From Spirochaetia bacterium (lineage in GTDB: Bacteria; Spirochaetota; Spirochaetia; UBA9216): 64,000 nucleotides of DNA. The stretch covers positions 288,001-352,000 of the forward strand of contig CAXXYH010000003.1 of the NCBI GenBank assembly GCA_963677925.2, in the 5' to 3' direction. The position numbers were made by a program, and so were the translations under genes. Shown piece by piece: positions 18,159 to 63,063 of the stretch. The notes under the pieces were generated by a model. The model was not told the origin of the DNA. It saw only the letters and a program-made list of their open reading frames with translations, and did no database searches. Each line of letters starts with the position of its first letter. Within the stretch, counting starts at the first letter, position 1.

Positions 18159-18188
18159 TCTGCAAAATTTCTAAAAGAGAGGATAAAT

Positions 18189-34703: not shown

Positions 34704-36248
34704 TCACCAGTCTATTGGGAAATAGTCTTTTAGAAACATTCCGCACCAGTGACGTCCTGTGTTTATACCGTCAAAAAGAGGATCACAGACTCGGGCGGCG
34801 CCGTCTACTATATCCAGCGGGGGCTGAAAATCATGCAGCTCCTGCTTCTTTTTCGCCAGCTGGGCCGGATCTTCATCGGTAACCCAGCCGGTATCAACTG
34901 CATTCATATATATTCCGTGTTCAGCAAGCTCACTCGCGGATGTGTGTGTAAGCATGTTAAGAGCTGCTTTTGCCATATTTGTATGCGGATGCCTCTCACC
35001 TTTCTTAAAACGCATAAACTTGCCTTCCATGGCAGAAACATTGACTATATGTTTGCAGCCTGTGTTCTCTTTTTTCATGAGAGGCACAAGTCTGTTGCAC
35101 AGAACAAATGGTGCTACAGAGTTAATAAGCTGTAGTTCAAGCATTTCCGAGGTCTGAATCTCACCAAGCTTAAGGCGCCAGCTGTTTGTTGTTCGCAGAT
35201 CAACCTGCTGCAGGTCGACATCCAGTTTGCCTTGAGGAAAAACAGCTTCAACTTCATGATTGTCTTCATACGCATACGGGATCTGCGATAATCTAGCCGA
35301 TTCAATCATCCCGAGACCGGGAGTTCTGGCCTCCCAGGATACAGGAACAAGAGCATCATCTGAATGACTGCTGTGTGAAAATTTCTCAATCCGGTTGAGA
35401 CAGGATTCATAATCAAAAAGAAGGCTGCGGACTTTTTCAGGAAGCGCCTCCCGCGGCATCAGTTCATTATCCATCAGATGCTGGTAAAAACCGGGCGGAC
35501 GCCGGACTGTCTGGGCAGCATTGTTTATAAGTATATCCAGCCGTCCAAACCTGTCGGTAATATGAGTACAGAATAGCTCAACACTGGGGGTGTGACGCAG
35601 ATCGAGCCCGTAGACATGCAGACGATGACCCCAGTCAGCAAAATCAGCTTCTTTCGAATATCGAATTGCGGAATCCACAGGAAATCGTGTTGTGGCAACA
35701 ACCTCAGCACCGGCCCTAAGAAGCATCAACGTTGCCTGATATCCAATTTTAAGCCTGGAACCCGTAATCACAGCAACCTGGCCTCTTAGATCTGCAGTCT
35801 GAAATCTTTTATAATAGTTCAGCTCTGCACATTCCGGACACATAGCATCATAAAAGAAATGCATGCGGGTATATTCTTTTTTACAGACGTAGCAATTACG
35901 CGGAGAATTCAGAACAAGTTCTTTATCATTATCCATCTCATCACAGGTCAGCTGCTTTGGTGCAGAAAATACGAGATTCTCCCTGGCACTTCGTATTCCG
36001 GTTGCCGCGCGTGCAGCCCGTTCATCAGCTACAGTCTCCTGCCGTTTTTTTCTGGCGGCGGCCTTCTTTCTCTGTTTTAAAACGGCATGATCCGGTTTGG
36101 ACAATGCGCCTGCGGCCTTTAGAAGTTCAATCTGTGTATCTCTGGGAATAGCAACTAACTGATCTGCATTTTCAGATAGAGCTTTTAATATATTTATACA
36201 GTTATTTATTTCTTCTTCTGTGTAATTTGATTCAGTGTCTTCGTTCAT
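34704..36248 (-). CDS. Atypical SDR oxidoreductase with N-terminal CxxC..CxxC domain
   Basis: [45 protein letters not shown]. Confidence 0.85.
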
Positions 36249-36315: not shown

Positions 36316-36346
36316 AAAAAAGCCGGAGCAGTTCATTGCTCCGGCT
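36316..36346 (-). terminator. Intrinsic terminator of panB-folD-fhs
   Basis: AGCCGGAGCA-N5-TGCTCCGGCT with a U tract on the minus strand. Confidence 0.85.
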
Positions 36347-36375: not shown

Positions 36376-38139
36376 TTAAAACAGTCCTTTTACCCGCCCT
36401 GTCTGGGTATCAACATCAATCTGCCTGAATGCAGGATCTGACGCAGTACCCGGCATAAGCTTGATGCCTCCGGCAACAGGTACAATAAACCCGGCGCCCT
36501 GATATACAAGGATATCGCTGATAGGCAGAGTCCAGCCTTTTGGGCGGCCCTTCAGAGTCGGGTCATGTGACAACGAAAGATGAGTCTTAACCATACATGT
36601 ACCCAGACCGTTTAATGAACTGTCATTCTGTATCTTTTCCAGCTTGGCAGAAGCTTCTGCACTGTAGCTAACACCATCTGCACCATAAACCTGGGTAGCA
36701 ATCAGCTCAATTCTTTCCTTAAGAGGTGTGGAATCTTCATACAGAAATTTAAAATCAGGTTTTTCTTCACAGGCCTCGACAACTGCGTTTGCAAGTTCAA
36801 CCGCACCTTCACCGCCTTTTTCCCAGTGCTTTGATAAGGCAACCCTGGCACCGGCTTTCTTACAGGCTTCTCTGATGACCTCAATTTCCTTATCTGTATC
36901 AGTATAAAAGTGGTTTATACATACAACTGCAGGTACACCGCTCTTTCTGACAGTTGCAATATGGGCAAGAAGGTTTTCAAGTCCTTTTTCAACCAGTTCA
37001 ATATTCTCTTCTGTATATGCCTTATCGAGAGGTTTGCCCGGAACAACCTTCGGTCCTCCTCCGTGCATCTTTAAAGCCCTTACTGTACACACAATTACAG
37101 AACAGTTCGGAACAAGTCCTGAGAACCTGCATTTAAGATTCCAGAATTTCTCAAAACCGATATCTGCACCGAAACCGCTCTCTGTTACATGGTAATCACA
37201 GAGTTTAAGACCCACACGGTCAGCTATAATTGATGACTGGCCGATTGCAATATTTGCAAAAGGGCCTGCATGAACAAGGACCGGCTGGCCTTCGATAGTC
37301 TGCATAATGTTCGGGTTTATAGCCCGTGCCATCAGGGCAGTCATTGCTCCGCCTACTTCCAGATCATCAGCAGTAACAGCTTCGCCTTTCTTGTTGTAAC
37401 CGATAATCATCTTACCTATGCGTTCGCGCATATCCTTAAGATCTTTTGCAACAGCAAGTATAGCCATAATTTCTGATGAAACGGTAATCTGAAAACCGCT
37501 TTTCATCATAAATCCGTCCATCTTCCCGCCGAGTCCTATTATTATTTCCCGGAGTGCCTGGGCTGAAAAATCTATAGCCCATCCTATTGCAGGGTTTCTT
37601 GGATCTATATCGAGTCTTTTGAGATTCTTTTTTTCAAGCACATCATCGCCGTAGTTGAATTCATGCTGAATCCGGCTGGTAAGAGCAACCATAGCCAGGT
37701 TGTGTGCGTTAGTGATGGCGTCTATATCGCCGGTAAGTCCGAGACTGAACTCAGTAAGAGGTACACATTGTGCAAGTCCGCCGCCAGCGGCTGACCCCTT
37801 AATGTTGAATGTAGGTCCGCCTGAAGGCTGCCTGATGGCTCCGCAGACAGACTTCCCAATCTTACCAAGTCCTTCAACCAGTCCCATGGTTGTAGTTGTC
37901 TTTCCTTCACCGAGAGGAGTAGGATTTATTGCCGTAACTTCGATGTATTTTCCATCCGGTTTATCTTTCAGTCGCTCAAGAATAGCGTTGTAATCCAGTT
38001 TACCAAGGAAGTGACCATAAGGCAGAATCTCCATTTTATCAAGATTCAGTTCTTCAGCCAGCTGATAGACTGTCTTCATATCCTTTTCAGCTGCTTCAGC
38101 AATCTCCCAGTCCTTCATCTTAGTCGGATCAAGTTTCAT
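36376..38139 (-). CDS. fhs: Formate--tetrahydrofolate ligase
   Basis: [55 protein letters not shown]. Confidence 0.97.
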
Positions 38140-38141
38140 AA

Positions 38142-39047
38142 TTATAACCTCAATGCGTATTTGAATGATTTTAAAGTATTCTTCATAAGCATTGTTATTG
38201 TCATGGGACCTACACCGCCGGGTACGGGGGTAATATATCCGGCAATCTGAGAGGCTTCTTCAAAATCAACATCACCCTTAAGAACTGCTATCTTCTTTCC
38301 GGTTTTTTCACTGATTTTTTCACCTACCCTGTTTACTCCGACATCAATAACACATGCTCCTTTTTTAATCCATTGCGGCTTAACCAGTCCCGGAACACCG
38401 GCTGCAACTATCAGGATATCTGCCCTCAGGCAGTGTTCAGCCAGGTTCTTGGTACCGGTATGCACAACTGTCACAGTAGAATTAGCCCCTGCACCTTTCT
38501 GCAGCATCATATTGGCTATAGGCTTTCCAACAATATTGGAACGCCCTACTACTACAACTTCAGCTCCTTTAGTTTCAACACCGGAACGGATAATCATCTC
38601 CTGAATTGCTGCAGGAGTACATGGCGGATATTTCACCTCATCACCGCCGATCATCAGCCGTCCGACATTTACAGGATGAAATCCATCGACATCCTTATCA
38701 GGATCAATAGCATTCAGAACTTTCTTCTCATCGATATGTTTCGGAAGAGGAAGCTGAACAAGGATACCATGGATATTTTCATCCTTATTATATTTATCAA
38801 TTAATTCAAGTAATTCAGCCTCGGTTATATTTTCAGACCTTGTGTCCTGAATTTCATTATAACCGAGACTCTGTGCTGTCTTGATCTTGAGGGTTACATA
38901 GGAGATAGAGGCCGGGTTTTCACCAATAAGAATAGTAACGAGACCCGGAACTTTTCCGTACTTCTCTTTAAGCTCTGCAGTTTCTGCCCTTAATTCAGCG
39001 AGAATCTCTTCCCGTATATCTGTTCCCTTAATCAATACAGCTGACAT
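38142..39047 (-). CDS. folD: Methylene-THF dehydrogenase/cyclohydrolase
   Basis: [47 protein letters not shown]. Confidence 0.97.
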
Positions 39048-39048
39048 A

Positions 39049-39915
39049 TTAAAGCCCCAGTGCCTTTTTCAGTTCTTCAACGGCTTCGGCTTTCATGTTG
39101 AAACTGTGGTCGTTTGTAGGAAATTTTACATCCTTAACTTCACCGATAAATTCCTTAACAGCATTAACCTGAGGTGTATACATATCAGCATAAACCTTTA
39201 CAAACTTCGGAGTAAATCTCTTAAAGAGTCCGAGAAGGTCATGATAAACAAGAACCTGTCCTGCGCATGAAGGACCAGCTCCGATACCAACTGTTGGAAT
39301 AGTAAGCTGTTCTGTAATTATTGCAGCAAGCTGCTGGGGAATAGCTTCAAGAATGATTGCAAAAGCACCTGCGTCCTGCATTGCAAGAGCATCATCGAGC
39401 ACTGATTTTGCAGCATCAAGTGATTTACCCTGAACCTTGAAACCGCCCATTGTGGCAGCTGTCTGAGGTGTAAGTCCGATATGTGCAAAAACCGGGATTC
39501 CGGCTTTGGTTATCGCTGCAGCTGTAGGTGCAAAATCCTGACCGCCTTCAAACTTGATGGAATCGCAAAGACCATCCTTATAAAGGATACCTGCATTGGT
39601 TACAGCCTGTTCATTTGAGATATTGTATGACATGAATGGAAGGTCACCTACTACGTGAGCTCTGTTTACAGCCCTCATAACAGCCTTTGTATGCATCAGC
39701 ATTTCGTCCATAGTTACTGGAACAGTGTCCTTGTAACCAAGTTCAACCATGCCCAGTGAATCACCTACCAGGATAATGTCGATACCTGCTTCATCAACAA
39801 CCATTGCCTGTGGATAGTTATAAGCAGTGATCATTGATATCTTTTCGCCGTCGTCTTTCATCTTCTGAAGATCAGCAGCGAGCAATTTTTTTGTTGCTTC
39901 CGGATGTGAACTCAT
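39049..39915 (-). CDS. panB: 3-methyl-2-oxobutanoate hydroxymethyltransferase
   Basis: ITAY, LVGDSLG, GDLPFMSY, KFEGG, HIGLTPQ, GIGAG, GQVLVYHD, PKFVK. Confidence 0.96.
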   Translation of the reverse strand: MSSHPEATKKLLAADLQKMKDDGEKISMITAYNYPQAMVVDEAGIDIILVGDSLGMVELGYKDTVPVTMDEMLMHTKAVMRAVNRAHVVGDLPFMSYNISNEQAVTNAGILYKDGLCDSIKFEGGQDFAPTAAAITKAGIPVFAHIGLTPQTAATMGGFKVQGKSLDAAKSVLDDALAMQDAGAFAIILEAIPQQLAAIITEQLTIPTVGIGAGPSCAGQVLVYHDLLGLFKRFTPKFVKVYADMYTPQVNAVKEFIGEVKDVKFPTNDHSFNMKAEAVEELKKALGL

Positions 39916-40067
39916 ATTAAACTCCTAAAGTGTATAATTTAACCTATATTTACCTTGTATAATAATATAACCTATAATAGTATTTTTTAACAAGGAAAAG
40001 ATAGCGAAATTTAACTAATACTTAATTATAATGGAATTCTGAGTTCTTTTCAAACAGGAGGCATTAT

Positions 40068-41270
40068 TTGAAAATTCTTATTATCAACAGCGGTAGCACT
40101 TCAATAAAATTCCAGATATTTAAAATGGATACTGAAGAAACCATTTGCAGGGGTCTGGTTGACAGGGTTGGAAACAACAGCGTTATCAAGATTGAAACTT
40201 CGGTTTTTAAGAAGGAATTTAATATTAATGTTGAAAATCACAAACAGGGGCTAGAGACTGTATTGAATCTGCTTACATCCGATGAGACAGGCATACTAAA
40301 AGATATTTCTGAAATTGATGCTGTCGGGCACAGGCTTGTACATGGCGGAGATAAACTTACCAGGCCCATGCTGATTACTCCTGAGGTTGTTTCAGTGGTG
40401 GAAGACAATCTCAACCTTGCTCCGCTTCACAATCCTCCGGGACTTCTGGGCGTGCAGGCCATAACCTCCCTGCTTCCGGATGTTCCCCAGTGCGCAAGTT
40501 TTGATACCGCCTATTATTCCGATATGAGTCAGGCTGCCTTTTCATTCGGACTGGGCTATGAATACTATGAGAAATACGGCCTTCGGAAATTCGGATTTCA
40601 CGGAGCCTCACATAAATACATCAATCTAAGGGCTGCAGAAATGCTCGGGCTGCCTAAAGAGAAACTTCATACCGTAAGCGCACATATCGGAGGCGGTGTA
40701 TCACTTACGTCATCTATAGGATGCAGAGCTGTGGATACTTCACTAGGTTTAGGAACAGCCTGCGGTGTTCCAATGGGGACACGTGCCGGGGATGTGGATC
40801 CCGATGCAGTTTTACACCTTATAACTGAAGCAGGCTTTTCTGCAGCAGAGGTGAAGGACATAATTTATAAGAAATCCGGTCTTGCCGGAATAAGCGGAGT
40901 TTCTCCTGATTTACGTGATATTCTTAAAGCTGCAGATGAAGGACAGGAAAGAAGCGTACTTGCACTTGAGATTTTTGTACGTTCTATCAGAAAATATATA
41001 GGTAAGCTTGCCTGTACTCTAGAGGGCAGAATGGATGCACTTATTTTCACTGCAGGAATTGGTGAAAACTCAGCAGTTATAAGAGAAAAAATATGCAGCG
41101 GCCTGGAGGTTCTTGGTATAGAAATTGACCCGGAACTTAACAAAACGGCAACAGGAGTTGAAGCGGTTATAAGCAGCGGTAATTCAAAGGTTAAAGTACT
41201 TGTCATACCAACTAATGAAGAATGGATGATGGCATCAGAAACTAAAGAAGTATTAGAAAATTTAGAATAA
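40068..41270 (+). CDS. ackA: Acetate kinase family carboxylate kinase with divergent substrate-pocket motifs; TTG start
   Basis: NSGSTSIK, GHRLVHGG, APLHNP, FDTA, GFHGASH, MGTRAGD, FTAGIGEN, IPTNEE; AGGAGG RBS. Confidence 0.85.
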   Translation: MKILIINSGSTSIKFQIFKMDTEETICRGLVDRVGNNSVIKIETSVFKKEFNINVENHKQGLETVLNLLTSDETGILKDISEIDAVGHRLVHGGDKLTRPMLITPEVVSVVEDNLNLAPLHNPPGLLGVQAITSLLPDVPQCASFDTAYYSDMSQAAFSFGLGYEYYEKYGLRKFGFHGASHKYINLRAAEMLGLPKEKLHTVSAHIGGGVSLTSSIGCRAVDTSLGLGTACGVPMGTRAGDVDPDAVLHLITEAGFSAAEVKDIIYKKSGLAGISGVSPDLRDILKAADEGQERSVLALEIFVRSIRKYIGKLACTLEGRMDALIFTAGIGENSAVIREKICSGLEVLGIEIDPELNKTATGVEAVISSGNSKVKVLVIPTNEEWMMASETKEVLENLE

Positions 41271-41283
41271 ATTTGGAGTAATA

Positions 41284-42240
41284 ATGAGCGGAAGTATATG
41301 CGATGTGCCGGGAATAAAAGTCGGGCATGCACAGGATTTAACAGGTGGTACAGGATGTACAGTTATTCTGCCGGATACAGAGGCTGTATGCGGTGTTGAT
41401 GTTGCCGGCGGAGCTCCTGGAACCAGAGAAACAGACTGCCTCAATCCGGTTAATTATATCCAGACGGTCCATGCAGTTTATCTTGGCGGGGGAAGTGCCT
41501 ACGGACTGGCCGGTGCAGACGGAGTTATGAAGTGGAGCGAAGAGAATAACAGAGGTCTTGATATCGGAATAGGACTGGTACCAATAGTTCCCGGAGCAGT
41601 CCTTTTTGATCTGCCGGTAGCCGATTATAAAGCCCGTCCGGATCAAAAGATGGGGTATGAAGCCTGTCTGGCGGCCAATTCAAATGAATCAAGAATGGGT
41701 AATATTGGCGCAGGAACAGGGGCAACCCTGGGAAAAGCCAAAGGTATTGATTTCTGCATGAAGGGCGGGCTTGGAACTGCAAGCATGAAGATAGGTGAAA
41801 TCGTTGTCGGTGCAATAGTGGCTGTAAACTGCTTTGGAGATGTCATAGACAATACTACCGGCCGGATAATTGCAGGAACCAGATCAGATAAACCCGGAGA
41901 ATTTCCGGGAACTGCAAAACTGCTGGCAGAACAGGCATCAACAGGCATCAATCCGATAAAGTCAAATACAACCATAGGAGTAATTGCTACTAACGCTAAA
42001 CTGACTAAACCTCAGGCTGCAAAAGTGGCCCAGATGGCTCATGACGGCTATGCCAGAACTATAAACCCGATACATACCATGCATGACGGAGACAGTATTT
42101 TCTGTCTTTCAAATGGAGATATAGAAGCAGATTTGACCGCAATCGGCAGTATGGCAGCTGAAGTAATGGCAGTTGCAGTCATTGAAGGCGTGAAAGCTGC
42201 AAAAACCATATTCGGAATACCGGGATTAGCAGGAGAATAA
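41284..42240 (+). CDS. P1 family (DmpA/ThnT/NylC-like) self-cleaving Ntn amide hydrolase
   Basis: DVPGIKVGH, TGCTV, GGAPGTRET, GGSAYGL, GAGTGA, N|TTIGVIATNA, HDG, HT..DGD. Confidence 0.9.
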   Translation: MSGSICDVPGIKVGHAQDLTGGTGCTVILPDTEAVCGVDVAGGAPGTRETDCLNPVNYIQTVHAVYLGGGSAYGLAGADGVMKWSEENNRGLDIGIGLVPIVPGAVLFDLPVADYKARPDQKMGYEACLAANSNESRMGNIGAGTGATLGKAKGIDFCMKGGLGTASMKIGEIVVGAIVAVNCFGDVIDNTTGRIIAGTRSDKPGEFPGTAKLLAEQASTGINPIKSNTTIGVIATNAKLTKPQAAKVAQMAHDGYARTINPIHTMHDGDSIFCLSNGDIEADLTAIGSMAAEVMAVAVIEGVKAAKTIFGIPGLAGE

Positions 42241-42241
42241 A

Positions 42242-43159
42242 ATGAAAATATCAATTATCGGTTCAGGAGCAATGGGTTCACTGTTCGGAGGAAAACTTGC
42301 AGCAGCAGGTAATGAAGTTGTTTTATATGATATAAATCTGGCTCATGTGAATGCAGTAAATGAAAACGGCTTAAGAATAGAAACCCTTGCGACAGGAGAC
42401 AGCGAATTCATAAAGGTAAAAGCTTCCGACAACCCTGAAGATGTGAAAGATTCAGACATAATGATCATCTTCGTAAAATCAACGGCAACAAAAGCCGTTG
42501 CCGAATCTTTCAAAAAACATGCTTCTGATGAAACAGTAGTAGTTACGCTTCAGAACGGAATCGGCAATGAAGATCTTATAAGAGAGGTTTTCGGCGAATC
42601 AAATACCGCCGCCGGGGTTACATCTCAGGGTGCGACATTTGCCGGCCCCGGACATATCAAACACGCCGGAAACGGCCCCACCCACCTGTGTATGTCAAAC
42701 GGCAAAAACTCAAAACTTGAGGCTTTTTCCAGAGAGCTTGCAAAAGCCGGATTTGAAATTATGCTTGAAGATGATATTGCAGGACTTGTATGGAGTAAGC
42801 TTGTTATCAATGTCGGCATAAATGCATTAACTGCTTTAACAGGGCTCAAGAACGGTGAACTGCTTGATTATGAAACAACCAGGGAATTAATGAGTGACCT
42901 GGTTAACGAAGCTGTGGCAGTTGCAAAAGCAGCAGGAATACAGCTTACCTATGATAACCCTCTTGAAACTGTTTATTCAGTTGCTGAAAAGACAGGAGCA
43001 AACAGGTCATCCATGCTTCAGGATTTTGACAGGGGCAGCCGCACGGAAATAGATTTTATAAATAATGCAATAGTAAAAAAGGGACAGGAACTTGGAATTG
43101 ATACTCCGGCTAACCGAATAATTGGAGCCCTGGTAAAAACCTATGACCTTAAAAGATAG
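42242..43159 (+). CDS. panE: 2-dehydropantoate 2-reductase
   Basis: GSGAMG, FVKS, TLQNG, WSKLVIN..IN, SSMLQD..TEIDFIN. Confidence 0.93.
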   Translation: MKISIIGSGAMGSLFGGKLAAAGNEVVLYDINLAHVNAVNENGLRIETLATGDSEFIKVKASDNPEDVKDSDIMIIFVKSTATKAVAESFKKHASDETVVVTLQNGIGNEDLIREVFGESNTAAGVTSQGATFAGPGHIKHAGNGPTHLCMSNGKNSKLEAFSRELAKAGFEIMLEDDIAGLVWSKLVINVGINALTALTGLKNGELLDYETTRELMSDLVNEAVAVAKAAGIQLTYDNPLETVYSVAEKTGANRSSMLQDFDRGSRTEIDFINNAIVKKGQELGIDTPANRIIGALVKTYDLKR

Positions 43160-43342
43160 AGCTTCTTGCAAAACTCGGTTAGTTTTGCAAGAAGCTTTGA
43201 AGCAAAATTTTACATAATTTTGTAAATTATTATTTAATAACAAATTGTAAAATTTTCTTCACTTACATTAAGGTAACAATTTAAAAACTTTCTTAGTTTT
43301 TAAATTGCCTAGATAAATCAAACTGATTTAAATATTAAATCA
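43160..43342. repeat. Cluster of AT-rich inverted repeats (REP/MITE-like) between convergent operons
   Basis: 16-bp perfect IR 43160-43196; 11-bp IR 43204-43256; 13-bp IR 43277-43307; 8-bp IR 43324-43342. Confidence 0.6.
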
Positions 43343-43346
43343 TCAT

Positions 43347-43397
43347 AAAAAAAACCGCAGACATTGAACTTTAGTCAGTTCGGTCTGCGGTTTTTTT
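43347..43397. terminator. Bidirectional intrinsic terminator
   Basis: aaaaaaaaCCGCAGAC-N20-GTCTGCGGttttttt. Confidence 0.85.
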
Positions 43398-43414
43398 ATA
43401 AACCTGATTAAGAT

Positions 43415-44605
43415 TTACTGAGCTGTAATTTTATCAACAAGTACTTTCTCTCCGCCTTTGATTTCAAAGAGGAAGAGGGGCTTGTCTGCAGGATATCCGC
43501 CTTTATTGGTCCAGCTGTACTGAAGACCGTCAAAGTTCTGAATATCATTACAGTAGTCTCTGATTAAAGTTCTTTCTTCTGCAAGTTTTGCAGGATCACC
43601 AGTCACACCGGTTTCTTCGATTGCTCTTTTGATCATGTAAACAGCATCGTAGTAGTTGGGTGAAAGACTGAAGGGCTCTATACCGTCATGATCGTCCTTG
43701 AAACTCTGTCTGAAAGTATTCCATCTTGGAGTATCGAGACTTGGATCACTGTAGTTATAAAGCATGATACCATCGATTTTATCGCCGCCTGTTGTGTAAA
43801 GAGCAGCGTCATCAGCACTTGAGAATACAAGTATTTTACTCATATCTTCCCAGCCTCTGTTCTTGAGTTCGATGATAATTTTAGCTACTTTTTCTGCATT
43901 ACATGCAAAAATTATACCGTCAGGATTCTGTGCAAGGGCCTTAACGATAAGCGGACCAAAAGATACTGCATCTGATGGTACATCTACATCTTCAAGAATA
44001 TTTGCGCCAGCGTCCTTAACTCCCTTTACATGAGCTTTTGCCATGCCGGGCCATGCGCCGTAGTTTTCTACAAACTGAACAACGTTTTTAGCACCGGTTT
44101 TCTCTGCCCATGCAGTAATAATCGGTGCAAGCCTTTCTTCTGTAGGAGCAAACCATGAAATTGCCCATGGAAAATACTCAGCGGCATATTCGTAGGAAGT
44201 TGTAGCTGTAAAGCTGTAAAGTCCCTCATCAGCTGCGATTGGTACAGCAGCCATAATTACAGGTTCGGGTACGGGACCCATAACTACAAGAGCACTGTCA
44301 ACAAGCTTTGACATTTCAACAGTTCCCTTTTCAGGGCTCATAGCGGTATCAATACCAACAACCTTTACAGGTTTTCCGGCAATACCGCCGGCAGCATTGA
44401 TTTCTTCTGCTGCGTACTCAGCACCCCACTGCAGGTATTCACCGATACTTGCAATAGGTCCGGTAAGACAGTTAAGGAAAGGGATTTCCCATTCATCGAC
44501 AACGACCCCACCGCTTTCAGAAGCGCCTGCTTCCTGACTTCCGCCTGCATAAACGAAAGACATGGAGAGAAGCAGCAGAACTAAGACTGTTAAAATCTTT
44601 TTCAT
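43415..44605 (-). CDS. Liv/HAAT-family ABC substrate-binding protein
   Basis: Signal peptide then GGSQE; LTGPIASIG, EEINAAGGIAGKP, YDAVYMI. Confidence 0.9.
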   Translation of the reverse strand: MKKILTVLVLLLLSMSFVYAGGSQEAGASESGGVVVDEWEIPFLNCLTGPIASIGEYLQWGAEYAAEEINAAGGIAGKPVKVVGIDTAMSPEKGTVEMSKLVDSALVVMGPVPEPVIMAAVPIAADEGLYSFTATTSYEYAAEYFPWAISWFAPTEERLAPIITAWAEKTGAKNVVQFVENYGAWPGMAKAHVKGVKDAGANILEDVDVPSDAVSFGPLIVKALAQNPDGIIFACNAEKVAKIIIELKNRGWEDMSKILVFSSADDAALYTTGGDKIDGIMLYNYSDPSLDTPRWNTFRQSFKDDHDGIEPFSLSPNYYDAVYMIKRAIEETGVTGDPAKLAEERTLIRDYCNDIQNFDGLQYSWTNKGGYPADKPLFLFEIKGGEKVLVDKITAQ

Positions 44606-44697
44606 TTTTTCCTCCTAATATTCTAAACGCATACGCGTTTATTACAATTTATAAATATCGGATATTTTCAAATATAAAACAGTTTAAAAATATTCCG

Positions 44698-45576
44698 TTA
44701 TACCTTTTTCGGTTTTTTGAAAACATTGACAATCTTTTCAATCATCTGCCTTGTAATAACACCTTCAGGCTTTATGACAAGAACAACTATGAGAAGTATA
44801 CCATAGATTACAATATTCCAAGATTCAACAATATCCGGAAGTATCAACGGAAATCCCCATAATAGCGGGGCTGCAAGCAGGGCTCCCCACTGAGTGGTGT
44901 ACCCGCCGACAAACAGCATTGTCATACAGACACCGACAATATGGAATGTAAAATGGTTCGGTGAAATACTTCTCATAATGAAAGCATAAAGAACACCGGA
45001 CATTCCGCCGAGTGCGCTCGCCCAGGTCTGAAGAAACATACCCATCTTCTTCACATCAACCCCGAAGGATACAGCAAGCTCTCTGTCGATAAAAATTGCT
45101 GATGCTGCACGGCCAAGTCTTGAATTATCAAAACGATGTATAAGAAAACCTGTAATTATCACCATAGCGTATATGAAAATGATAAGAAATGTTCTGTTAG
45201 CCGCCGAAGTCTGTAGAATCTTGGGTATACTGAAAATACCGAGCGGACCTCCGAATGCTTCAACATTTTCAATAATTGTTTTTGTAAGATAGATAAAAGT
45301 AAAACCTACAATAACAACAGCAAAGCAGGGAGCATCACCTATAGCTATGGAAACAAGGAACCCGATTAATGCACCAAGCAATGTTCCCACTATAAAAACA
45401 ACTATAAAAGGCCAATCAAAATTGATAGCCATTAAGGCTGAAAAATATGCTGATATTGCCATATTAGCAACTGTCATAAAATGAAGCTGTCCTACCCTGT
45501 ACGGGATATAGATGGACCAGCTCATTAGTATATAGATGGCGGTTATTGCCAGAAAATAATATAAAGGTAAAGACAC
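44698..45576 (-). CDS. LivM-like ABC permease; GTG start
   Basis: Multi-TM; GGPLGI, SRLGRA, FVGG, PEG. Confidence 0.88.
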   Translation of the reverse strand: MSLPLYYFLAITAIYILMSWSIYIPYRVGQLHFMTVANMAISAYFSALMAINFDWPFIVVFIVGTLLGALIGFLVSIAIGDAPCFAVVIVGFTFIYLTKTIIENVEAFGGPLGIFSIPKILQTSAANRTFLIIFIYAMVIITGFLIHRFDNSRLGRAASAIFIDRELAVSFGVDVKKMGMFLQTWASALGGMSGVLYAFIMRSISPNHFTFHIVGVCMTMLFVGGYTTQWGALLAAPLLWGFPLILPDIVESWNIVIYGILLIVVLVIKPEGVITRQMIEKIVNVFKKPKKV

Positions 45577-45594
45577 AGTACTCCTCCTGACTTC

Positions 45595-46485
45595 CTATAG
45601 CTTGCTTCCGAATACGCCTTTCGGTTTAGCCAGAATAACAACAAGCATAATTATAAAAGCGATAGCGTTAGACCAGGAACCGGCTAGGTACCCCTGAATG
45701 ATAGCTTCCAGAACACCCAGAAGCAATCCGATAATCAGTCCGCCCGTCAAATTACCCAGACCGGCAATGATTGAAACAGCAAGAACCTTATGTCCTAAAG
45801 AATCACCAAGACCGGCAGATGCTGAACCAAGCAGAATAGCCATGAGAACTGCAGTCACACCGCCCAGAATACCTGTCAGTGCGTAACTTAAAAATCCGGT
45901 TTTCAACAGCGGAATACCTACCAGTTTTGCTCCGTTCGGATCTTCGGCAATAGCCCTGAATGCGCGTCCGGTTCTGGTCTTATAAAGCAGCCAGAACAGA
46001 AATGCTACAAAAAGAACTCCGACAATCAGGGTAAGAACCTGCCCTCTTGAAATACTGATAAGACCTACACTTATGAGTGCTCCCTTATCATTTCCAGTCA
46101 GTGCATCTGGAAAGGCAATAGGAAAACCCTGGTTAAAAGTGTGGGAAAGTATGTCGGTAATAATCATTCCCATCCCCATTGAAATAACCATTGTTGCATT
46201 TATATCAACACTGCCTCGTTTTTTCATAATATGCTGAAACATCGGTGCAGTAAGTGCGTTAACCGCAATCGCCGAAGCAATGCCTCCCAGAACACCGAGT
46301 GGTATATTATTACCGGTTAACCCCAGCACGACCCAGGATATATACATCGAAAAAACAATTACCACCGGAAAAGAAAAGTGAATAATCATCGCTACAAGCA
46401 GAAGCAGATTAAATCCCGTTACCAGCAGAACATAAATGCTTCCAAGCGAAAGTCCGTTAAATATTTGTGCTATTAATATTTCCAT
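45595..46485 (-). CDS. LivH-like ABC permease
   Basis: NGLSLGSIY, TRTGRAFRAIAED, GLGN, KPKGVFG. Confidence 0.9.
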   Translation of the reverse strand: MEILIAQIFNGLSLGSIYVLLVTGFNLLLLVAMIIHFSFPVVIVFSMYISWVVLGLTGNNIPLGVLGGIASAIAVNALTAPMFQHIMKKRGSVDINATMVISMGMGMIITDILSHTFNQGFPIAFPDALTGNDKGALISVGLISISRGQVLTLIVGVLFVAFLFWLLYKTRTGRAFRAIAEDPNGAKLVGIPLLKTGFLSYALTGILGGVTAVLMAILLGSASAGLGDSLGHKVLAVSIIAGLGNLTGGLIIGLLLGVLEAIIQGYLAGSWSNAIAFIIMLVVILAKPKGVFGSKL

Positions 46486-46488
46486 TCT

Positions 46489-47205
46489 CTATGCTCCAAG
46501 ATATGCTTCTTTAACTGCAGGATCATTCAACAGTTCTTCAGAAGTTCCGCTCTTGATTATATTTCCTGTTTCAAGAACATAACCGCGATGTGCAATTTTA
46601 AGAGCCTTATATACATTCTGTTCAGAAAGGAGGATTGTATACCCTTCTTTGTTCAGATTTACAAGAATCTCAAAAATATCGTTTACAATAATCGGAGCAA
46701 GCCCGATAGACGGTTCATCTACCATAATCATATCAGGTGATGACATCAGAGCTCTTGCTATAGCAAGCATCTGTCTTTCACCGCCGCTTAACGTACCGGC
46801 AACCTGATTTTTTCTGTTGCCTAGAACCGGAAAGGAATCATAGACAAGTTCAAGTTTTTTATCCGACTGAGAAAGGTTGTGGTGAGCGCCGAGAAGAAGG
46901 TTATCCAGAACAGTCATCGATGAAAAAACTCCGCGCCCTTCAGGAACCAGGAACATACCGCTTCTCACATTCTTATCTACAGATGTATTGGTAATATCCT
47001 TGCCTTTATAAGTAATTTTACCGTTCTCAGGAACATTTGCACCAAGGACAGTTTCCATTATAGTTGTTTTACCAGCCCCGTTGGCGCCTACTAAAACAAC
47101 AATCTCACCTTTCTTAAGTTCAAGATCAATATTTTTAAGCGCTTTTACATGTCCGTAATTTACAGAAAGGTTTTCAACACTCAGTATATTTTCATTCTGT
47201 GCCAA
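46489..47205 (-). CDS. LivF-like ABC ATPase; TTG start
   Basis: GANGAGKTT, VPEGR, LSGGERQM, DEPSIGLAP, AYLG; GGAGG RBS inside livG. Confidence 0.92.
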   Translation of the reverse strand: MAQNENILSVENLSVNYGHVKALKNIDLELKKGEIVVLVGANGAGKTTIMETVLGANVPENGKITYKGKDITNTSVDKNVRSGMFLVPEGRGVFSSMTVLDNLLLGAHHNLSQSDKKLELVYDSFPVLGNRKNQVAGTLSGGERQMLAIARALMSSPDMIMVDEPSIGLAPIIVNDIFEILVNLNKEGYTILLSEQNVYKALKIAHRGYVLETGNIIKSGTSEELLNDPAVKEAYLGA

Positions 47206-47953
47206 GATATGCCTCCAGTACTCTCTGGTCTTTCTGTACCTCAGAAGGTGTTCCCTCAAAAATATTGTCTCCGAAGTTAAGAACAGTGACCGTCTCAGCA
47301 ACATTCATAAGCATTTTCATATCATGACTTACAACTACTACTGTAATTCCCATTTCCTTAATTTTCTGAATAAGCTCACCGACCTGTTCAGTCTCCTTCG
47401 GGCCCATACCGGAGGCGGGTTCATCCATAAGCAGAATTTTAGGCTTGGAAACAAGAGCCCTTGCAATCTGAACAAACTGCCGTTCAGCCCATACAAGATC
47501 AGATGCCCATCTATCAGCAGATCCTGAAAGATTAAGCATTTCAAGAACCTCAAAAGCTGAATCGCGAAGTTCTTTTTCTACTTTCGACTGTCTGAACGGA
47601 ATTCTGAAAAAAGTATCTTTGATATCAGATTTATGATAGTCATAGACACCGCTCATTACATTTTCTATAACTTTAAGTGACGGAACAAGTTTCCCCTGCT
47701 GGAAGGTCCGTCTGATACCTAAATTGGAAATCTCATGCGCAGGTTTACCGGTGATCTCAATGTCATTCAGGTAGATATTACCCGCAGTCACCTCTAAAAG
47801 TCCGGTTATACAGTTAAACATAGTAGTTTTACCGGAACCGTTGGGGCCAATAATGCCATGAATACGTCCGTCCTGAATATCAAAACTTACGTCTTTCAAT
47901 GCCTTTAGACCGCCAAAGTGCTTACTTACACCCTTAATTGACAGCATCAACAT
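47192..47953 (-). CDS. LivG-like ABC ATPase
   Basis: FGGL.AL, GPNGSGKTT, RTFQ, MDEPASG, HDM, AYLG. Confidence 0.92.
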   Translation of the reverse strand: MLMLSIKGVSKHFGGLKALKDVSFDIQDGRIHGIIGPNGSGKTTMFNCITGLLEVTAGNIYLNDIEITGKPAHEISNLGIRRTFQQGKLVPSLKVIENVMSGVYDYHKSDIKDTFFRIPFRQSKVEKELRDSAFEVLEMLNLSGSADRWASDLVWAERQFVQIARALVSKPKILLMDEPASGMGPKETEQVGELIQKIKEMGITVVVVSHDMKMLMNVAETVTVLNFGDNIFEGTPSEVQKDQRVLEAYLGTE

Positions 47954-48162: not shown

Positions 48163-48633
48163 CTAATGACCCTCACCTTTTATCATTAATAAGGCATGTT
48201 CAAGAATGCCTAGAAGGTAATTTGTACAGGATGTAACAGCCTTAACCGATCCCGGCAGATTGATAATCAGTGTGTTTCCATGGAGCCCTGAATACCCCCG
48301 GCTTAGAACTGCCATCGGTGTTTCCCTGTATGAATGTATTCTTATAGCCTCCGATATACCCGGAACATCCCTGTCGCACCAGGCTGCTGAAACTTCAGGC
48401 GTAATATCTCTCGGGCCAAGACCGGTTCCGCCTGTTGTAATTATCAGATCAAAAGACTCATATTGATTAAGAGCATGAAGAATAGCTTCCATCTCATCAG
48501 CAACAATCGTACCGGAAAGCTCAATCTCCTCCTGAAATTTCTGCCTTAAAATTTCAGTTATGGCAGGACCGGACAAATCTTCGTATTCACCTCTGCTGGC
48601 TCTGTCAGATATTGTAATAACAGCTGCTTTCAA
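48163..48633 (-). CDS. mog: MogA/MoaB family molybdopterin adenylyltransferase; TTG start
   Basis: TISDRASRG..EDLSGP, TTGGTG.GPRDITPE, INLPGS; GGAGG RBS 7 nt upstream. Confidence 0.88.
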   Translation of the reverse strand: MKAAVITISDRASRGEYEDLSGPAITEILRQKFQEEIELSGTIVADEMEAILHALNQYESFDLIITTGGTGLGPRDITPEVSAAWCDRDVPGISEAIRIHSYRETPMAVLSRGYSGLHGNTLIINLPGSVKAVTSCTNYLLGILEHALLMIKGEGH

Positions 48634-49045
48634 CTGTAATCCTCCCGCCTTTAATAACTTTTGCAAATATTCCGCGCCTGGGCATTATACAGTCGCCTAC
48701 CTGCTCTCTGATAGCACATCCGTGATGACATTCTTTTCCGATCTGCGTAACTTCAAGTTCAGTATCACCGATAAAAAGTCTTGTCCCTACAGGAAGGCTG
48801 TATAATTCTATACCTCTGGTTGTTATATTTTCCGCAAAATCACCGAAATTGAGTTCAATACCCTTTCCACGCATAAGATCTATATCTTCATCAGCAAGAA
48901 GGGATATCTGTCTGTGCCAGTTGCCCGCATGGGCATCTCCCTCTATGCCATGTTCAGGTTTAATTTCAAAAAAATCAACCGGTACTTTTTTCTCACCTTT
49001 CTTCTTTGAGATATTCAGTGATAACAGTTCAAATTTATTTTTCAT
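48605..49045 (-). CDS. Stand-alone MOSC-domain protein
   Basis: GIEGDAHAG..HRQISLL, GDFAEN, QIGKECH..C, CIMPRRG. Confidence 0.9.
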   Translation of the reverse strand: MKNKFELLSLNISKKKGEKKVPVDFFEIKPEHGIEGDAHAGNWHRQISLLADEDIDLMRGKGIELNFGDFAENITTRGIELYSLPVGTRLFIGDTELEVTQIGKECHHGCAIREQVGDCIMPRRGIFAKVIKGGRITVESSCYYNI

Positions 49046-49058
49046 ATTTCAGCCTTTT

Positions 49059-49553
49059 CTATTTTCTCTGCCACAGACCGGATTTTCCTCCGGATTTTCT
49101 AATCAATCTTATGGCGGTTATTTCCATACCCCGATCAACTGCCTTGCACATATCGTAGACCGTCAGAGCTGCTGTTGAAACCGCTGTCATTGCTTCCATC
49201 TCTATTCCGGTTTGACCGGAGGTTCTGGCTGTGGCGGTAATGTTTACCTTTCCGTATTTATTTCCGTTTTCACCCTCAGCTTCAATTAATTCAAAATCCA
49301 TATCGACACCGGAAATGAAAATATTATGACACATAGGTATAAGATCAGAAGTTTTTTTTGCACCGGTTATTCCCGCAATCTGCGCAGTTCCCAGGACATC
49401 ACCCTTTTTCAAACTGCCGTCACGGATAAGTCTCAAAGTTTCAACTTTCATATAAACTGAACCTTCCGCTACGGCCTCGCGTGCAGTCATTGCTTTTTCA
49501 GATACATCAACCATTTTAGGACGGCCGTCCTTGTTAAAATGCGTAAATTCCAA
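49059..49553 (-). CDS. moaC: Cyclic pyranopterin monophosphate synthase
   Basis: THF..G..MVDVSEK, KGDVL, LIPMCH, TGIEMEA, YDMCKA, KSGGKSG. Confidence 0.96.
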   Translation of the reverse strand: MEFTHFNKDGRPKMVDVSEKAMTAREAVAEGSVYMKVETLRLIRDGSLKKGDVLGTAQIAGITGAKKTSDLIPMCHNIFISGVDMDFELIEAEGENGNKYGKVNITATARTSGQTGIEMEAMTAVSTAALTVYDMCKAVDRGMEITAIRLIRKSGGKSGLWQRK

Positions 49554-49554
49554 A

Positions 49555-50517
49555 TCAGCCCCCTACTTCATGCATGCTGTGAATTGTTTTTTCAAAATCA
49601 GTCATTTCAAGATTATGTTCACCGGGTTTCATTCTGATTCCTTCCGCAAAAACTTCAGCCAATGTTTTTCCTTCGTCCAAAGCCTCCCGGATATCCATAC
49701 CTCTGTTTGAATGGAGACATGAAAGCAGCTTTCCCTCTGATGTGATTCGAAGCCTGTTACAATCTCCGCAGAATTTATGACTTATCGGATTTATAAAACC
49801 GAACCTTCCCTTCCCCTCGGGAAGCTGCCAGACCTCAGCAGGACTTCCCTTTTCGGTGATATCAATTTTAACCATACCGGGAACCTTATCGAAAACCGTT
49901 TTATTAGGAAGATATCGGTCTTCAGTCCAGCCTGAAGCCTCGCCTACCGGCATCAGCTCAATAAATCTTATCTCAATATCAAGATATTCTGCAAGCTTTT
50001 TGAACTCCAGAATTTCATCTTCATTAAAATCTTTGATGAGCACCGAATTTATTTTCAGAGGCGTTAACCCGGCTTTTAGCGCAGTGTCTATCCCCTTGAG
50101 AACTGAATCAAGTTTATCAAGGCGGGTTATCCATTTGAATTTCTCACGATTAAGAGAATCAAGACTGATATTTACCCGATCAAGGCCTGCATCTTTAAGC
50201 TTAAAGGCCATATCCGGAAGCAGAATTCCATTAGTTGTCAGGGTCAAAGTTTTCAAACCATCAATTTTACGAATATTCTGAATAAGTTCTATAAGCCCCT
50301 TTCTCACCAGAGGTTCACCGCCTGTAAGTCTGATTTTGTTTATTCCGCAGGAAACTGCAGCTTCTGCTATCTCAGTCAGTTCTTCAATTCTCAGAATCTT
50401 TGAGTGTTCTTTTTTTTCAATCCCGCCAGATGGCATACAGTATCGGCATCTGAGATTACATAAATCAGTTATTGACAGTCGAAGGTAATTGATATTACGG
50501 CTAAAGGTATCTAACAC
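49555..50517 (-). CDS. moaA: GTP 3',8-cyclase
   Basis: YLRLSITDLCNLRCRYCM, TGGEPL, FCGDCNRLR, C-terminal GG. Confidence 0.96.
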   Translation of the reverse strand: MLDTFSRNINYLRLSITDLCNLRCRYCMPSGGIEKKEHSKILRIEELTEIAEAAVSCGINKIRLTGGEPLVRKGLIELIQNIRKIDGLKTLTLTTNGILLPDMAFKLKDAGLDRVNISLDSLNREKFKWITRLDKLDSVLKGIDTALKAGLTPLKINSVLIKDFNEDEILEFKKLAEYLDIEIRFIELMPVGEASGWTEDRYLPNKTVFDKVPGMVKIDITEKGSPAEVWQLPEGKGRFGFINPISHKFCGDCNRLRITSEGKLLSCLHSNRGMDIREALDEGKTLAEVFAEGIRMKPGEHNLEMTDFEKTIHSMHEVGG

Positions 50518-52427: not shown

Positions 52428-52436
52428 AACAGACTC

Positions 52437-53666
52437 CTAAAACCGGTAAACACGAACCGGTATACCTGAAGACAGACCTTCAGTGTCGCGGCTGATCTCA
52501 ATATAGCCGTAAGCCCGGCTTAGAGTTGTAATCATGCTTGAGCCGCCTCCAACAGGAGTCGCTTCAAAATTGTTATCTGAATTTTTCAAGAGAAAAACCG
52601 GTTTATAAGTATCACGGCCGGGAGACCCATGAATATTTTCAGTCAGGACTGCCTCAACCCAGGGTTCAACAGGAGCCAGGGCATTGCAAAGCAGATAGAA
52701 CAAATGTTTCCCGATAATTTTAAATACCATAAGAGCAGAAACCGGATGGCCCGGAAGTCCGACAAGAGGGAATCCTCCGGCGCTTGCAAGTATCGTAGGC
52801 TTTCCCGGGTTAAATGCAATTCCATGCACGAAACAGCCGGGTTCTCCGATTTTATCAAAAATTTCCATTGTAAAATCTTTATTACCGGCCGAACTTCCGC
52901 CGCTTAAAAAAACAACATCCGAGCTGGTCATTGCTTCCCTTATTGCCTTTTCCAGCAGCAATTTATCATCACTAACAACTTCGGCGCTTACCACATCAAA
53001 GCCGATTTTCTCGGCCTCAGCTCTCAAAGTATGTGAATTGATGTCTCTGATCTTTGCGGGAACAAGTACGGTATCAGAGGCTGTTATTTCATCACCGGTT
53101 GAAATTATAACAGCCGAGGGCTTTTTATAAACTTTGATATCCGTAATACCGGAAGCGGATAATACACCAATATCTGCTGAATCTATCTGCCTTCCAGCCT
53201 CAAACAGAAGTTCACCCACGCTGATATCCCTTCCGACCGGAACTACATTCATTCCCTTAACAGCAGGAACAGAAAAAGCTATTTCATCACCTATCTGTTC
53301 AGAGTATTCTATCATTACAACTGCATCTGCGCCTTCAGGCATCATTCCGCCGGTGGGGATGTAAGCGGCAGTACCTGAGCTTATTTTAAAATCCGGAGCT
53401 TTACCCATTGATACTTCACCTGCGATTTTCATAATAATTGGTATAGTCTCGGATGCCCCGGAAGTTTCAGCTGCGATTACGGCATAGCCGTCCATTGTGG
53501 ATTTTGCAAAATGCGGTACAGGATCAGCAGAGTATATATTTTCAGCGACAATTCTTCCTGAAGATTTATAAACCGCTATGTTCTCGGTTTTCCCGGGATT
53601 TGCCTTAAAATGAGTATTAATAAGTTCAAGTGCAGTATCAACTGTTACTACTTTCAACAAAGGCAT
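52437..53666 (-). CDS. moeA: Molybdopterin molybdotransferase MoeA
   Basis: STMDGYAV, TGG..P.GADAVVMIE, STGDE, SGGSS, PGKP, LPGHPVS. Confidence 0.94.
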   Translation of the reverse strand: MPLLKVVTVDTALELINTHFKANPGKTENIAVYKSSGRIVAENIYSADPVPHFAKSTMDGYAVIAAETSGASETIPIIMKIAGEVSMGKAPDFKISSGTAAYIPTGGMMPEGADAVVMIEYSEQIGDEIAFSVPAVKGMNVVPVGRDISVGELLFEAGRQIDSADIGVLSASGITDIKVYKKPSAVIISTGDEITASDTVLVPAKIRDINSHTLRAEAEKIGFDVVSAEVVSDDKLLLEKAIREAMTSSDVVFLSGGSSAGNKDFTMEIFDKIGEPGCFVHGIAFNPGKPTILASAGGFPLVGLPGHPVSALMVFKIIGKHLFYLLCNALAPVEPWVEAVLTENIHGSPGRDTYKPVFLLKNSDNNFEATPVGGGSSMITTLSRAYGYIEISRDTEGLSSGIPVRVYRF

Positions 53667-54995: not shown

Positions 54996-55013
54996 CAGAT
55001 AATCCTGATTAAT

Positions 55014-55886: not shown

Positions 55887-56050
55887 TACTATCTCCTTTA
55901 CAAATACGGAAGGCAGTACTGTTTCCGGTACCACCCTTTTGAACGACGTTCAAAGCAGTCTACACAAATAGCTCAGTTCTTTGATACGAAATTCATCGGC
56001 CTATATTCCATACCTATTCGGCTGCAGGAAAGAAGGCTCGGACAATAATA
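55887..56050 (-). ncRNA. Moco/Tuco RNA motif (putative molybdenum/tungsten cofactor riboswitch)
   Basis: Minus strand: UCCGAGC..CCU..UAUGG..GGCC..AGGGUGGUACCGGAAACAGUACUGCCUUCCGUAUUUGUAAAGGAG, ending on the tupA RBS. Confidence 0.85.
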
Positions 56051-63061: not shown

Positions 63062-63063
63062 TC

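Follow-up and report, generated by a model that had tools for sequence, protein, structure and literature searches.

The DNA analyzed here, a stretch of 64,000 nucleotides from a Spirochaetia bacterium (contig CAXXYH010000003.1 of assembly GCA_963677925.2; hereafter the window), carries panB and panE, two genes of canonical pantothenate biosynthesis, next to folD, fhs, a self-cleaving amidase gene of the S58/P1 family, an acetate/propionate-family kinase gene and an ATP-binding cassette (ABC) importer. The question is what PanB and PanE do in such company. An initial annotation had proposed that both run in reverse, in an anaerobic breakdown of pantothenate or pantetheine. We analyzed gene content, gene order, conservation and co-occurrence, and from these we inferred every reaction and its direction. 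The cluster appears to encode an anaerobic pathway that ferments pantothenate or pantetheine, with isobutyrate, formate, CO2 and beta-alanine as products and ATP gained at two steps, a reading to which we give a probability of roughly 0.6.

Gene content of the genome and recurrence of the cluster

Open reading frame (ORF) listing and profile searches found all the genes named in the initial annotation in the order given there (Table 1). As first described, panB, folD and fhs are tightly packed (gaps of 1 nt between panB and folD and 2 nt between folD and fhs) and diverge from the kinase, S58 and panE genes (gaps of 13 nt between kinase and S58 and 1 nt between S58 and panE), on which a five-gene Liv-type importer (43415-47953, minus strand) converges. 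Both domains of PanE, PF02558 and PF08546, were matched in the profile search; equivalog-level models were not reached, and its substrate assignment stays at the family level.

Whole-genome profile searches of the window genome (5.04 Mb in 4 contigs, 99.63% complete) gave no match to panC, panD, archaeal PPS or coaBC, and the models TIGR00018, PF02569, PF02006 and TIGR00521 matched nothing in it. The same result was obtained by tblastn of the genome with the CoaBC, PPS, PoK, PanC, PanD and PanG proteins of relatives. panC and panD had already been noted as missing from the window, and both are absent from the whole genome as well. The genes coaX, coaD and coaE are present. Lacking panC, panD, PPS, PoK and coaBC, the genome cannot use its panB and panE for coenzyme A (CoA) synthesis by any known route, and the presence of coaX, coaD and coaE without coaBC indicates that the cell probably salvages pantetheine or phosphopantetheine. 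Since coaBC is absent, pantothenate would have no use as a vitamin and could be burnt without a futile cycle. Archaeal PoK and PPS, considered as an explanation for the absence of panC, hold for other families of the class and were rejected for the window genome, in which neither was matched.

The panB of the cluster is the only true copy in the genome, and the fhs and folD of the cluster are extra copies, with a second pair (45% identical for fhs and 35% for folD) at C3:1595382-1597884. The genome also contains three further acetate-kinase paralogues, a second ptb gene accompanied by a buk-like gene, and vorABC on another contig (C4, 2088259-2090601). A weak panB-like gene (C3:1606503-1607291), 25% identical and with 77 bits short of the TIGR00222 cut-off, lies about 9 kb from the second fhs-folD pair, and that pair adjoins a FocA-like formate channel (C3:1593865-1597884).

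An S58 orthologue was found in 20 of 61 relatives, and the neighborhood was examined up to 9.5 kb on either side of S58 in 19 other genomes, of which two were represented by contigs of 3 kb and one (L037) by a 45% homologue in an unrelated context. The results showed that panB was present at 16 of the 19 loci, panE at 15, folD at 10, fhs at 9, the kinase at 8 (all from the window's own family) and the Liv-type binding protein at 6. In most relatives panE stands directly 3' of S58. The arrangement is not due to chance. The initial annotation had made its proposal depend on conservation elsewhere, and the core recurs both in relatives and in other phyla.

A co-localization search scored for panC, of the kind suggested at the outset, was extended to 251 class genomes, each at least 85% complete (thresholds E<=1e-70 for S58 and E<=1e-15 for coaBC). 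It found S58 orthologues in 37 genomes and panB within 3 kb on the same contig, as read by hand from tables of positions, in 26. The remaining 11 comprise four 45-47% homologues and seven fragmented assemblies. Among the 33 genomes of the class with an S58 of at least 52% identity, the pairing is found in 26, and it recurs in Chloroflexota and Bacillota. panC was detected in none of the 37 S58 genomes (34/251 overall), while coaBC, present in 128/251 overall, was detected in just two (G017 and G190) of the 26 that have S58 and panB paired. Counting all 37 S58 genomes, coaBC is present in six, and the four besides G017 and G190 carry distant S58 homologues, one of which directly adjoins coaBC. 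The 26 genomes span 12 families, two of them with coaBC, so the independent count is small.

The cluster-linked panB is 74-86% identical to the window panB across genera and families (the same-genus copy is 100% identical), whereas the panB of PoK/PPS operons in the same class is only 37-45% identical. Other families of the class have either panB-panC-coaBC or an archaeal-type operon. In several families, which have no panC, this operon comprises a GHMP-family kinase (PoK-like), PPS (PF02006), panB, a pyridoxal phosphate-dependent decarboxylase and coaBC (loci L039-L043 from G036, G040, G042, G046 and G053; for example L042:1450-6324).

We clustered the neighbors of the 19 loci and annotated representatives. 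Subunits of a 2-oxoacid:ferredoxin oxidoreductase lie beside panB in 5 of the 19 loci, and on the VorB (3-methyl-2-oxobutanoate) model its alpha subunit passed the cut-off of 399 with 551 bits. In 5 relatives a phosphate butyryltransferase-like gene adjoins livG, and the ptb of the window is 70% identical to it. M20 amidases of two types also accompany the core. An ArgE/DapE-type deacylase stands beside panE in 8 loci and occurs in 10 of the 61 relatives, all of which are S58 genomes. A hydantoinase/carbamoylase-type enzyme stands beside fhs in 5 relatives' loci, occurs in 15 of the 61 relatives (14 of them S58 genomes) and is 85-93% identical even between families; an orthologue of the window's copy scored 458.9 bits on NF006769 and 368 on TIGR01879. 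A Dpp/Opp-type ABC importer replaces the Liv type in 3 loci, and a HAD hydrolase and metallophosphoesterases are also among the neighbors.

Table 1. Positions of the cluster genes, associated genes and signals in the window.
Feature	Position	Strand	Evidence or structure
fhs, formate--tetrahydrofolate ligase	36376-38139	-	NF010032, 1101.5 bits vs cut-off 938 (equivalog-level)
folD, methylene-tetrahydrofolate dehydrogenase/cyclohydrolase	38142-39047	-	NF010765, 558.6 bits vs 501 (equivalog-level)
panB, ketopantoate hydroxymethyltransferase (3-methyl-2-oxobutanoate hydroxymethyltransferase)	39049-39915	-	TIGR00222, 312.4 bits vs 207.55 (equivalog-level)
Divergent spacer panB/kinase, putative promoter region	39916-40067		152 nt
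Acetate/propionate-family kinase, proposed isobutyrate (acyl-phosphate) kinase	40068-41270	+	TIGR00016, 417 bits vs 293
S58/P1 self-cleaving amidase, proposed pantetheine (pantothenoyl-amide) hydrolase	41284-42240	+	PF03576, E 2e-48, residues 4-312
panE-family 2-dehydropantoate reductase, proposed pantoate oxidation	42242-43159	+	TIGR00745, 290.7 bits vs 141.35 (subfamily-level)
Hairpin between convergent panE and binding-protein genes	43160-43196		16 pairs
Liv-type (HAAT) substrate-binding protein	43415-44605	-	PF13458
ABC permease, LivM-like	44698-45576	-	PF02653
ABC permease, LivH-like	45595-46485	-	PF02653
ABC ATPase, LivF-like	46489-47304	-	Profile match starts at about residue 38
ABC ATPase, LivG-like	47192-47953	-	ORF and profile search
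ptb, phosphate butyryltransferase-like, proposed isobutyryl-CoA to isobutyryl-phosphate	56167-57081	+	PF01515
M20 amidase, hydantoinase/carbamoylase family (c12), pantothenase candidate or beta-ureidopropionase	24091-25338	+	Pfam M20
Terminator-like hairpin ending the panB-folD-fhs unit	36321-36346	-	10-pair stem, 7 G-C, then T run; consensus match only

The S58 amidase, the kinase and the importer

A profile of 12 S58 orthologues found its best solved match in the NylC-like nylon hydrolase 9CXR (E 2.7e-91), with NylC-like chains spanning E 2.7e-91 to 1e-40 and the ThnT structures 3S3U, 3TM1 and 4IHE matched at E 1.7e-67. The residues N228-T229-T230 are invariant in all 12 aligned orthologues and align with L-N-T-T of ThnT and N-T-T of 9CXR. 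We take the Asn-Thr bond in ThnT and NylC to be the self-cleavage site, with Thr as the nucleophile. By profile and motif the protein is assigned to the ThnT/NylC subfamily of S58/P1 Ntn amidases, in agreement with the ThnT-like P1-family hydrolase of the initial annotation. ThnT is a pantetheine hydrolase, which cuts the pantothenoyl-cysteamine bond.

Scanning a reference-genome collection with the S58 alignment gave 80 loci from many phyla at 45-69% identity. A gene for a pan or coa enzyme was found in 19 of these loci, within 3 kb of S58 in 14; an ECF S-component, an SSF (sodium:solute symporter) or an OPT transporter lies within 300 bp of S58 in 18; and one or other of the two contexts, a pan/coa gene or a vitamin-type transporter, is present in 33. 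In Agathobacter, ECF-S, S58 and coaBC stand together. These contexts suggest a widespread and so far undescribed salvage step from pantetheine to pantothenate in bacteria that have type III pantothenate kinase only. Among the individual loci, S58 adjoins coaBC in L074, L117 and L060 and coaX in L082, L093 and L097, and in ten Bacillota loci an ECF S-component lies just upstream of S58.

Other loci combine S58 with much of the gene set seen in the window. In an Anaerovoracaceae metagenome-assembled genome (MAG; L091), fhs, a gene with an FTCD_C (cyclodeaminase) domain, folD, a formate/nitrite transporter, an IclR regulator, panB, panE, M20, an OPT transporter and S58 lie on a single strand. A Symbiobacterium MAG (L083) carries ECF transporter genes, S58, M20, panB and a class-III aminotransferase, and a Rectinemataceae MAG (L088) carries fhs, panB, S58, PduL, a Liv-type importer, M20, panE, a class-III aminotransferase and an aldehyde dehydrogenase. 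Together with PduL, these last two enzymes would be consistent with a breakdown of the released beta-alanine via malonate semialdehyde. In a Bacillota MAG (L110:10001-12900) the S58 homologue is followed directly by an fhs 70% identical to that of the window. The closest S58 outside the genus (69% identity; L046, titled "uncultured Vibrio sp.") groups inside the window's family in the tree; no panB or panE lies within 10 kb of it, and it represents either a mislabelled bin or a transfer.

As the S58 family is found elsewhere beside coaX, coaBC, panC/panD and vitamin-type transporters, its product is more likely to be pantothenate than pantoate. From this comparison, we favor a ThnT-like release of pantothenate from pantetheine by the S58 enzyme and regard an M20 amidase as the more probable pantothenase. 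One function would then fit all S58 contexts, namely the release of pantothenate from a pantothenoyl amide, feeding CoA salvage elsewhere and breakdown here. The initial annotation had instead drawn the same catabolic pathway with S58 itself as the pantothenase, yielding pantoate, an arrangement in which the M20 amidases would serve side reactions. S58 is indeed directly coupled to panE, and in the window genome and four family members it is the only amidase in the core, with no ArgE/DapE-type M20 orthologue. However, its homologues occur where the destruction of pantothenate would be counterproductive, its resemblance to ThnT points to the cysteamine side of the molecule, and the ArgE/DapE-type M20 is found in S58-bearing genomes only. 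In a quick tree, with support from the Shimodaira-Hasegawa-like approximate likelihood ratio test (SH-aLRT) only, the S58 topology follows taxonomy and not gene context, which again speaks against S58 as the pantothenase. We consider S58 as the pantothenase unlikely. A distinct "catabolic" S58 clade was also sought in this tree and rejected, as the copies from Symbiobacterium and Anaerovoracaceae cluster with those found in a salvage context within their respective phyla.

The kinase had been described as divergent, and the alignment located the change in the acetate pocket. We take this pocket to be lined by Pro232 and Asn211 of the Methanosarcina enzyme, around the segment G-F-T-P-L-E-G. All 9 aligned cluster kinases (the window's and those of 8 relatives) have G-x-G-T-x-x-G in place of T-P-L-E-G, the window sequence being G-L-G-T-A-C-G, and the equivalent of Asn211 is Gly in 8 of the 9, including the window's. 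The three paralogues in the same genome and the solved 2IIR and 1G99 keep both T-P-L-E-G and Asn. The protein thus belongs to the TIGR00016 family (E 1.6e-113 against a solved acetate-kinase-family enzyme) with an altered acetate-pocket segment, and it does not qualify as AckA proper. It evolves fast, with identities of 48-61% within the family (the same genus left out), and was found only in the window's own family. By-eye reading, without alignment, of the S58-panB spacers of two other families revealed apparent kinase remnants, C-terminal at L027:4219-4606 and N-terminal at L028:10448-10708. Its restriction to one family and these apparent remnants suggest that the kinase is an accessory, replaceable part of the cluster.

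The importer's binding protein belongs to the Leu/Ile/Val-binding family (E 5e-14 against the best solved relatives) and scored 52.2 bits on the LivJ model NF011933, far below the cut-off of 477, so that it does not classify as LivJ. Its orthologues are 67-98% identical in 6 of the 19 cluster loci and 58-60% identical in L088. The listed ORF start of livF overlaps livG, and the actual start therefore probably lies further downstream.

The proposed fermentation and its alternatives

In the pathway that we propose, the Liv-type ABC system would import pantothenate and probably also pantetheine, and the S58 Ntn amidase would convert pantetheine to pantothenate and cysteamine. An M20 amidase would then split pantothenate into pantoate and beta-alanine; in many relatives this would be the ArgE/DapE-type enzyme, and in the window genome perhaps the carbamoylase-type M20 or S58 itself. 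PanE would oxidize pantoate to ketopantoate, and PanB would cleave ketopantoate to 2-ketoisovalerate and 5,10-methylene-tetrahydrofolate (methylene-THF). From here two branches would yield energy: FolD and Fhs would carry the one-carbon unit to formate with the gain of one ATP, and VorABC, Ptb and the divergent kinase would convert ketoisovalerate to isobutyrate and CO2 with the gain of a second. The pathway would extend past the positions 36376-47953 first assigned to it, to the ptb of the window and possibly the M20 gene, with vor on another contig.

The catabolic direction is favored by several features of the gene set. The cluster amidases are members of hydrolase families, and none of the conserved neighbors was seen to carry an annotation as an ATP-dependent amide ligase. 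Four different importer families (Liv, Dpp, OPT and ECF) occupy the same position, the ATP-yielding enzymes are linked to the core, and one version of the cluster includes a formate channel and an IclR regulator. Of the pathway in the initial annotation, import, hydrolysis, the reversal of PanE and PanB and the two ATP sites gained strong comparative support, as the core is conserved, panC, panD, PPS, PoK and coaBC are missing, and the steps absent from the window cluster are encoded beside the core elsewhere; the S58 product, the extent of the cluster and the need for the kinase had to be revised.

Several points weigh against this fermentation. All its redox and one-carbon steps are reversible and, taken alone, would equally fit the synthesis of pantoate from isobutyrate and formate, and PanE would have to oxidize pantoate against an unfavorable thermodynamic gradient. 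Pantothenate occurs only in traces as a nutrient, and the gain from a dedicated pathway with two extra ATP branches is not obvious. An S58 enzyme that cleaves pantetheine would compete with the pantetheine salvage that a cell without coaBC presumably needs. The window genome has no orthologue of the ArgE/DapE-type M20 (best match 28% identical), and its carbamoylase-type M20 could be a beta-ureidopropionase of the reductive pyrimidine pathway, making beta-alanine, from which pantothenate is built; the window also contains PreT/PreA-like genes (61763-63999) and, at 16797-18158, a gene for a dihydropyrimidinase-like amidohydrolase. In Chloroflexota, S58 is the first gene of an apparently biosynthetic S58-DUF2520-panD-panB(-panC) arrangement (L057:10001-13957, L069, L053 and L098). 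Finally, the anti-correlation with coaBC rests on related genomes from 12 families, and the near-exclusion of coaBC and panC would also be expected if these genes had been replaced by non-orthologous ones.

The genes might also be a composite neighborhood without a common substrate, where the Liv importer, Ptb, the kinase and Vor would serve branched-chain amino-acid fermentation and FolD and Fhs a purine or one-carbon fermentation, S58 would be a general beta- or D-aminopeptidase, and PanB and PanE would be leftovers of the vitamin pathway or act on other 2-oxo or 2-hydroxy acids. Spirochaetes are known to ferment branched-chain amino acids to branched acids with ATP gain. The binding protein comes from the Leu/Ile/Val-binding family, PanE attains subfamily-level models only, and the window is rich in nucleobase-catabolic genes (xanthine-dehydrogenase-like at 13279-15417, amidohydrolase, carbamoyltransferase-like and PreT/PreA-like). 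Yet a chance assembly would not account for the translational packing of panB with folD-fhs and of S58 with panE, nor for an S58-panB pairing that holds in most S58 genomes of the class and again in Chloroflexota and Bacillota. The panB gene, at 74-86% identity across genera and families (same-genus genome excluded), is under strong constraint and not decaying; the binding protein falls far under the LivJ cut-off, and other lineages have swapped the importer for peptide- or vitamin-type transporters. A composite origin therefore seems improbable to us.

The remaining alternative reverses the direction of the fermentation. In this biosynthetic bypass, pantoate would be made from ketoisovalerate and formate-derived methylene-THF and joined to beta-alanine, and perhaps cysteamine, in place of PanC and CoaBC. 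For example, the kinase would make an acyl phosphate, the S58 Ntn enzyme would act as an acyl transferase and the importer would bring in a building block. More generally, a route that reaches pantetheine or 4'-phosphopantetheine without PanC and CoaBC, with pantoate activated by the remodelled kinase or another donor and the amine partners joined by S58, would explain why panC and coaBC are nearly absent from cluster lineages that keep coaX, coaD and coaE. The complementary distribution (panC in 0/37 S58 genomes, coaBC in 2/26 cluster genomes) agrees with such a route, as do the co-occurrence of the cluster with the carbamoylase-type amidase, a potential source of beta-alanine, the pyrimidine-reduction genes in the window, the remodelled kinase pocket and the place of the S58 family within the panD-panB-panC operon of Chloroflexota; aminolysis is possible for S58 relatives. 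In Chloroflexota, however, S58 accompanies panC and does not replace it. No ligase was seen among the conserved neighbors, no cysteamine source is evident, and Vor, Ptb, PduL, the aldehyde dehydrogenase, the formate channel, IclR and the four importer types suit breakdown better. The bypass and the general route are both rated very unlikely, the former since the kinase, its only energy-coupling candidate, is dispensable, being absent outside one family save for the by-eye remnants in two others.

Relation to known systems, promoters and flanking genes

The aerobic route of Pseudomonas uses pantothenase, pantoate 4-dehydrogenase, aldopantoate dehydrogenase and dimethylmalate dehydrogenase, and we know of no sequences for the last three enzymes. 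Like it, the proposed fermentation begins with the conversion of pantothenate to pantoate and beta-alanine and reaches 2-ketoisovalerate. The Pseudomonas route oxidizes C4 of pantoate, which is lost as CO2, whereas the proposed route would oxidize C2 (PanE in reverse) and remove C4 as methylene-THF (PanB in reverse), with energy conserved via Fhs. In thienamycin biosynthesis, CoA is trimmed by ThnR, ThnH and ThnT. The S58 protein resembles ThnT as a predicted Ntn amidase of the same subfamily with the Asn-Thr cleavage site aligned, and in some related clusters a HAD hydrolase stands beside S58, as in the trimming of CoA; ThnT supplies cysteamine for the antibiotic, whereas here the pantoyl part would be consumed. 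The NylC nylon-oligomer hydrolases are the closest solved sequence relatives and share the self-cleaving Thr nucleophile motif. Their natural substrates are unknown or man-made, whereas the gene neighborhood of S58 suggests pantothenoyl compounds in the present case.

PanB and PanE are bona fide members of the families that serve canonical pantothenate biosynthesis. Unlike in that pathway, they occur in a genome without PanC, PanD and CoaBC and are linked to hydrolases, importers and ATP-yielding enzymes. Substrate-level phosphorylation from one-carbon THF units occurs in purine, histidine and glycine fermentations, and branched-chain 2-oxoacids are fermented via Vor, Ptb and an acyl kinase. 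The cluster contains the same two ATP-yielding modules, with the difference that one vitamin-derived substrate would feed both of them through the reversal of PanB. A full-text literature search, whose coverage did not extend to subscription journals and supplements, gave no paper that connects a reversal of panB or panE, folD/fhs and an amidase of the S58 or M20 type with the breakdown of pantothenate. The cluster would be a fermentative catabolic system whose enzymes come from known families but whose substrate and logic have not been described before.

If this reading is correct, the cluster provides the first gene-level account of the bacterial breakdown of vitamin B5 and the first anaerobic route. 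It would also offer the ArgE/DapE-type M20, the carbamoylase-type M20 and S58 as candidates for pantothenase. This enzyme has been known for some sixty years, and a 2023 article (PMC10393543) still calls its protein unidentified. PanB and PanE would run physiologically in reverse, which would alter how the presence of panB and panE is read in automated predictions of vitamin prototrophy in microbiomes. Where coaBC is missing, bacteria would use pantothenate as a fuel instead of as a vitamin, and such bacteria may be B5 sinks in anoxic communities. Pantothenoyl-amide hydrolysis would become the likely natural role of a widespread S58 subfamily, of which the solved members are known chiefly for hydrolyzing nylon.

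The two best-matching sigma-70-like sites of the scan lie back to back in the divergent region between panB and the kinase gene, both as consensus matches only: a putative promoter on the minus strand at 40053-40025 with 11 of 12 consensus positions and one on the plus strand at 39949-39978 with 10 of 12. The total number of such sites in the scan equals the expectation from shuffled sequence. In the aligned spacers of relatives, the only conserved element reads, by eye, as the -10 box of the panB promoter. A repeat, TAACCTATA, occurs twice in the divergent region; it was rejected as a shared operator because 16 of 100 shuffles gave at least two matches. An Rfam scan of 30000-60000 found no riboswitch or leader for the cluster, the only matches being a molybdenum cofactor (Moco) riboswitch and a sub-threshold Thr-leader.

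Beyond fhs lies a gene (34704-36248, minus strand) for a protein of 514 aa with a short-chain dehydrogenase domain in two parts (residues 157-249 and 361-468), ahead of which about 150 residues are unmatched. It was excluded as a cluster member, as it stands behind the terminator-like hairpin and keeps its position in the same-genus genome only. On the other side, the block between livG and ptb (48163-55934) contains mog-like, MOSC, moaC and moaA genes, two moeA-like genes and a Mo/W-type ABC transporter, and the Moco riboswitch (55877-56055, 64.6 bits in the Rfam scan) belongs to the Mo/W transporter. Nucleobase-catabolism-like genes at 13279-19388 encode a Moco subunit of the xanthine-dehydrogenase family, an amidohydrolase and a carbamoyltransferase-like protein. 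Together with the PreT/PreA-like pair at the end of the window, they may account for the presence of the Moco block and of the carbamoylase-type M20.

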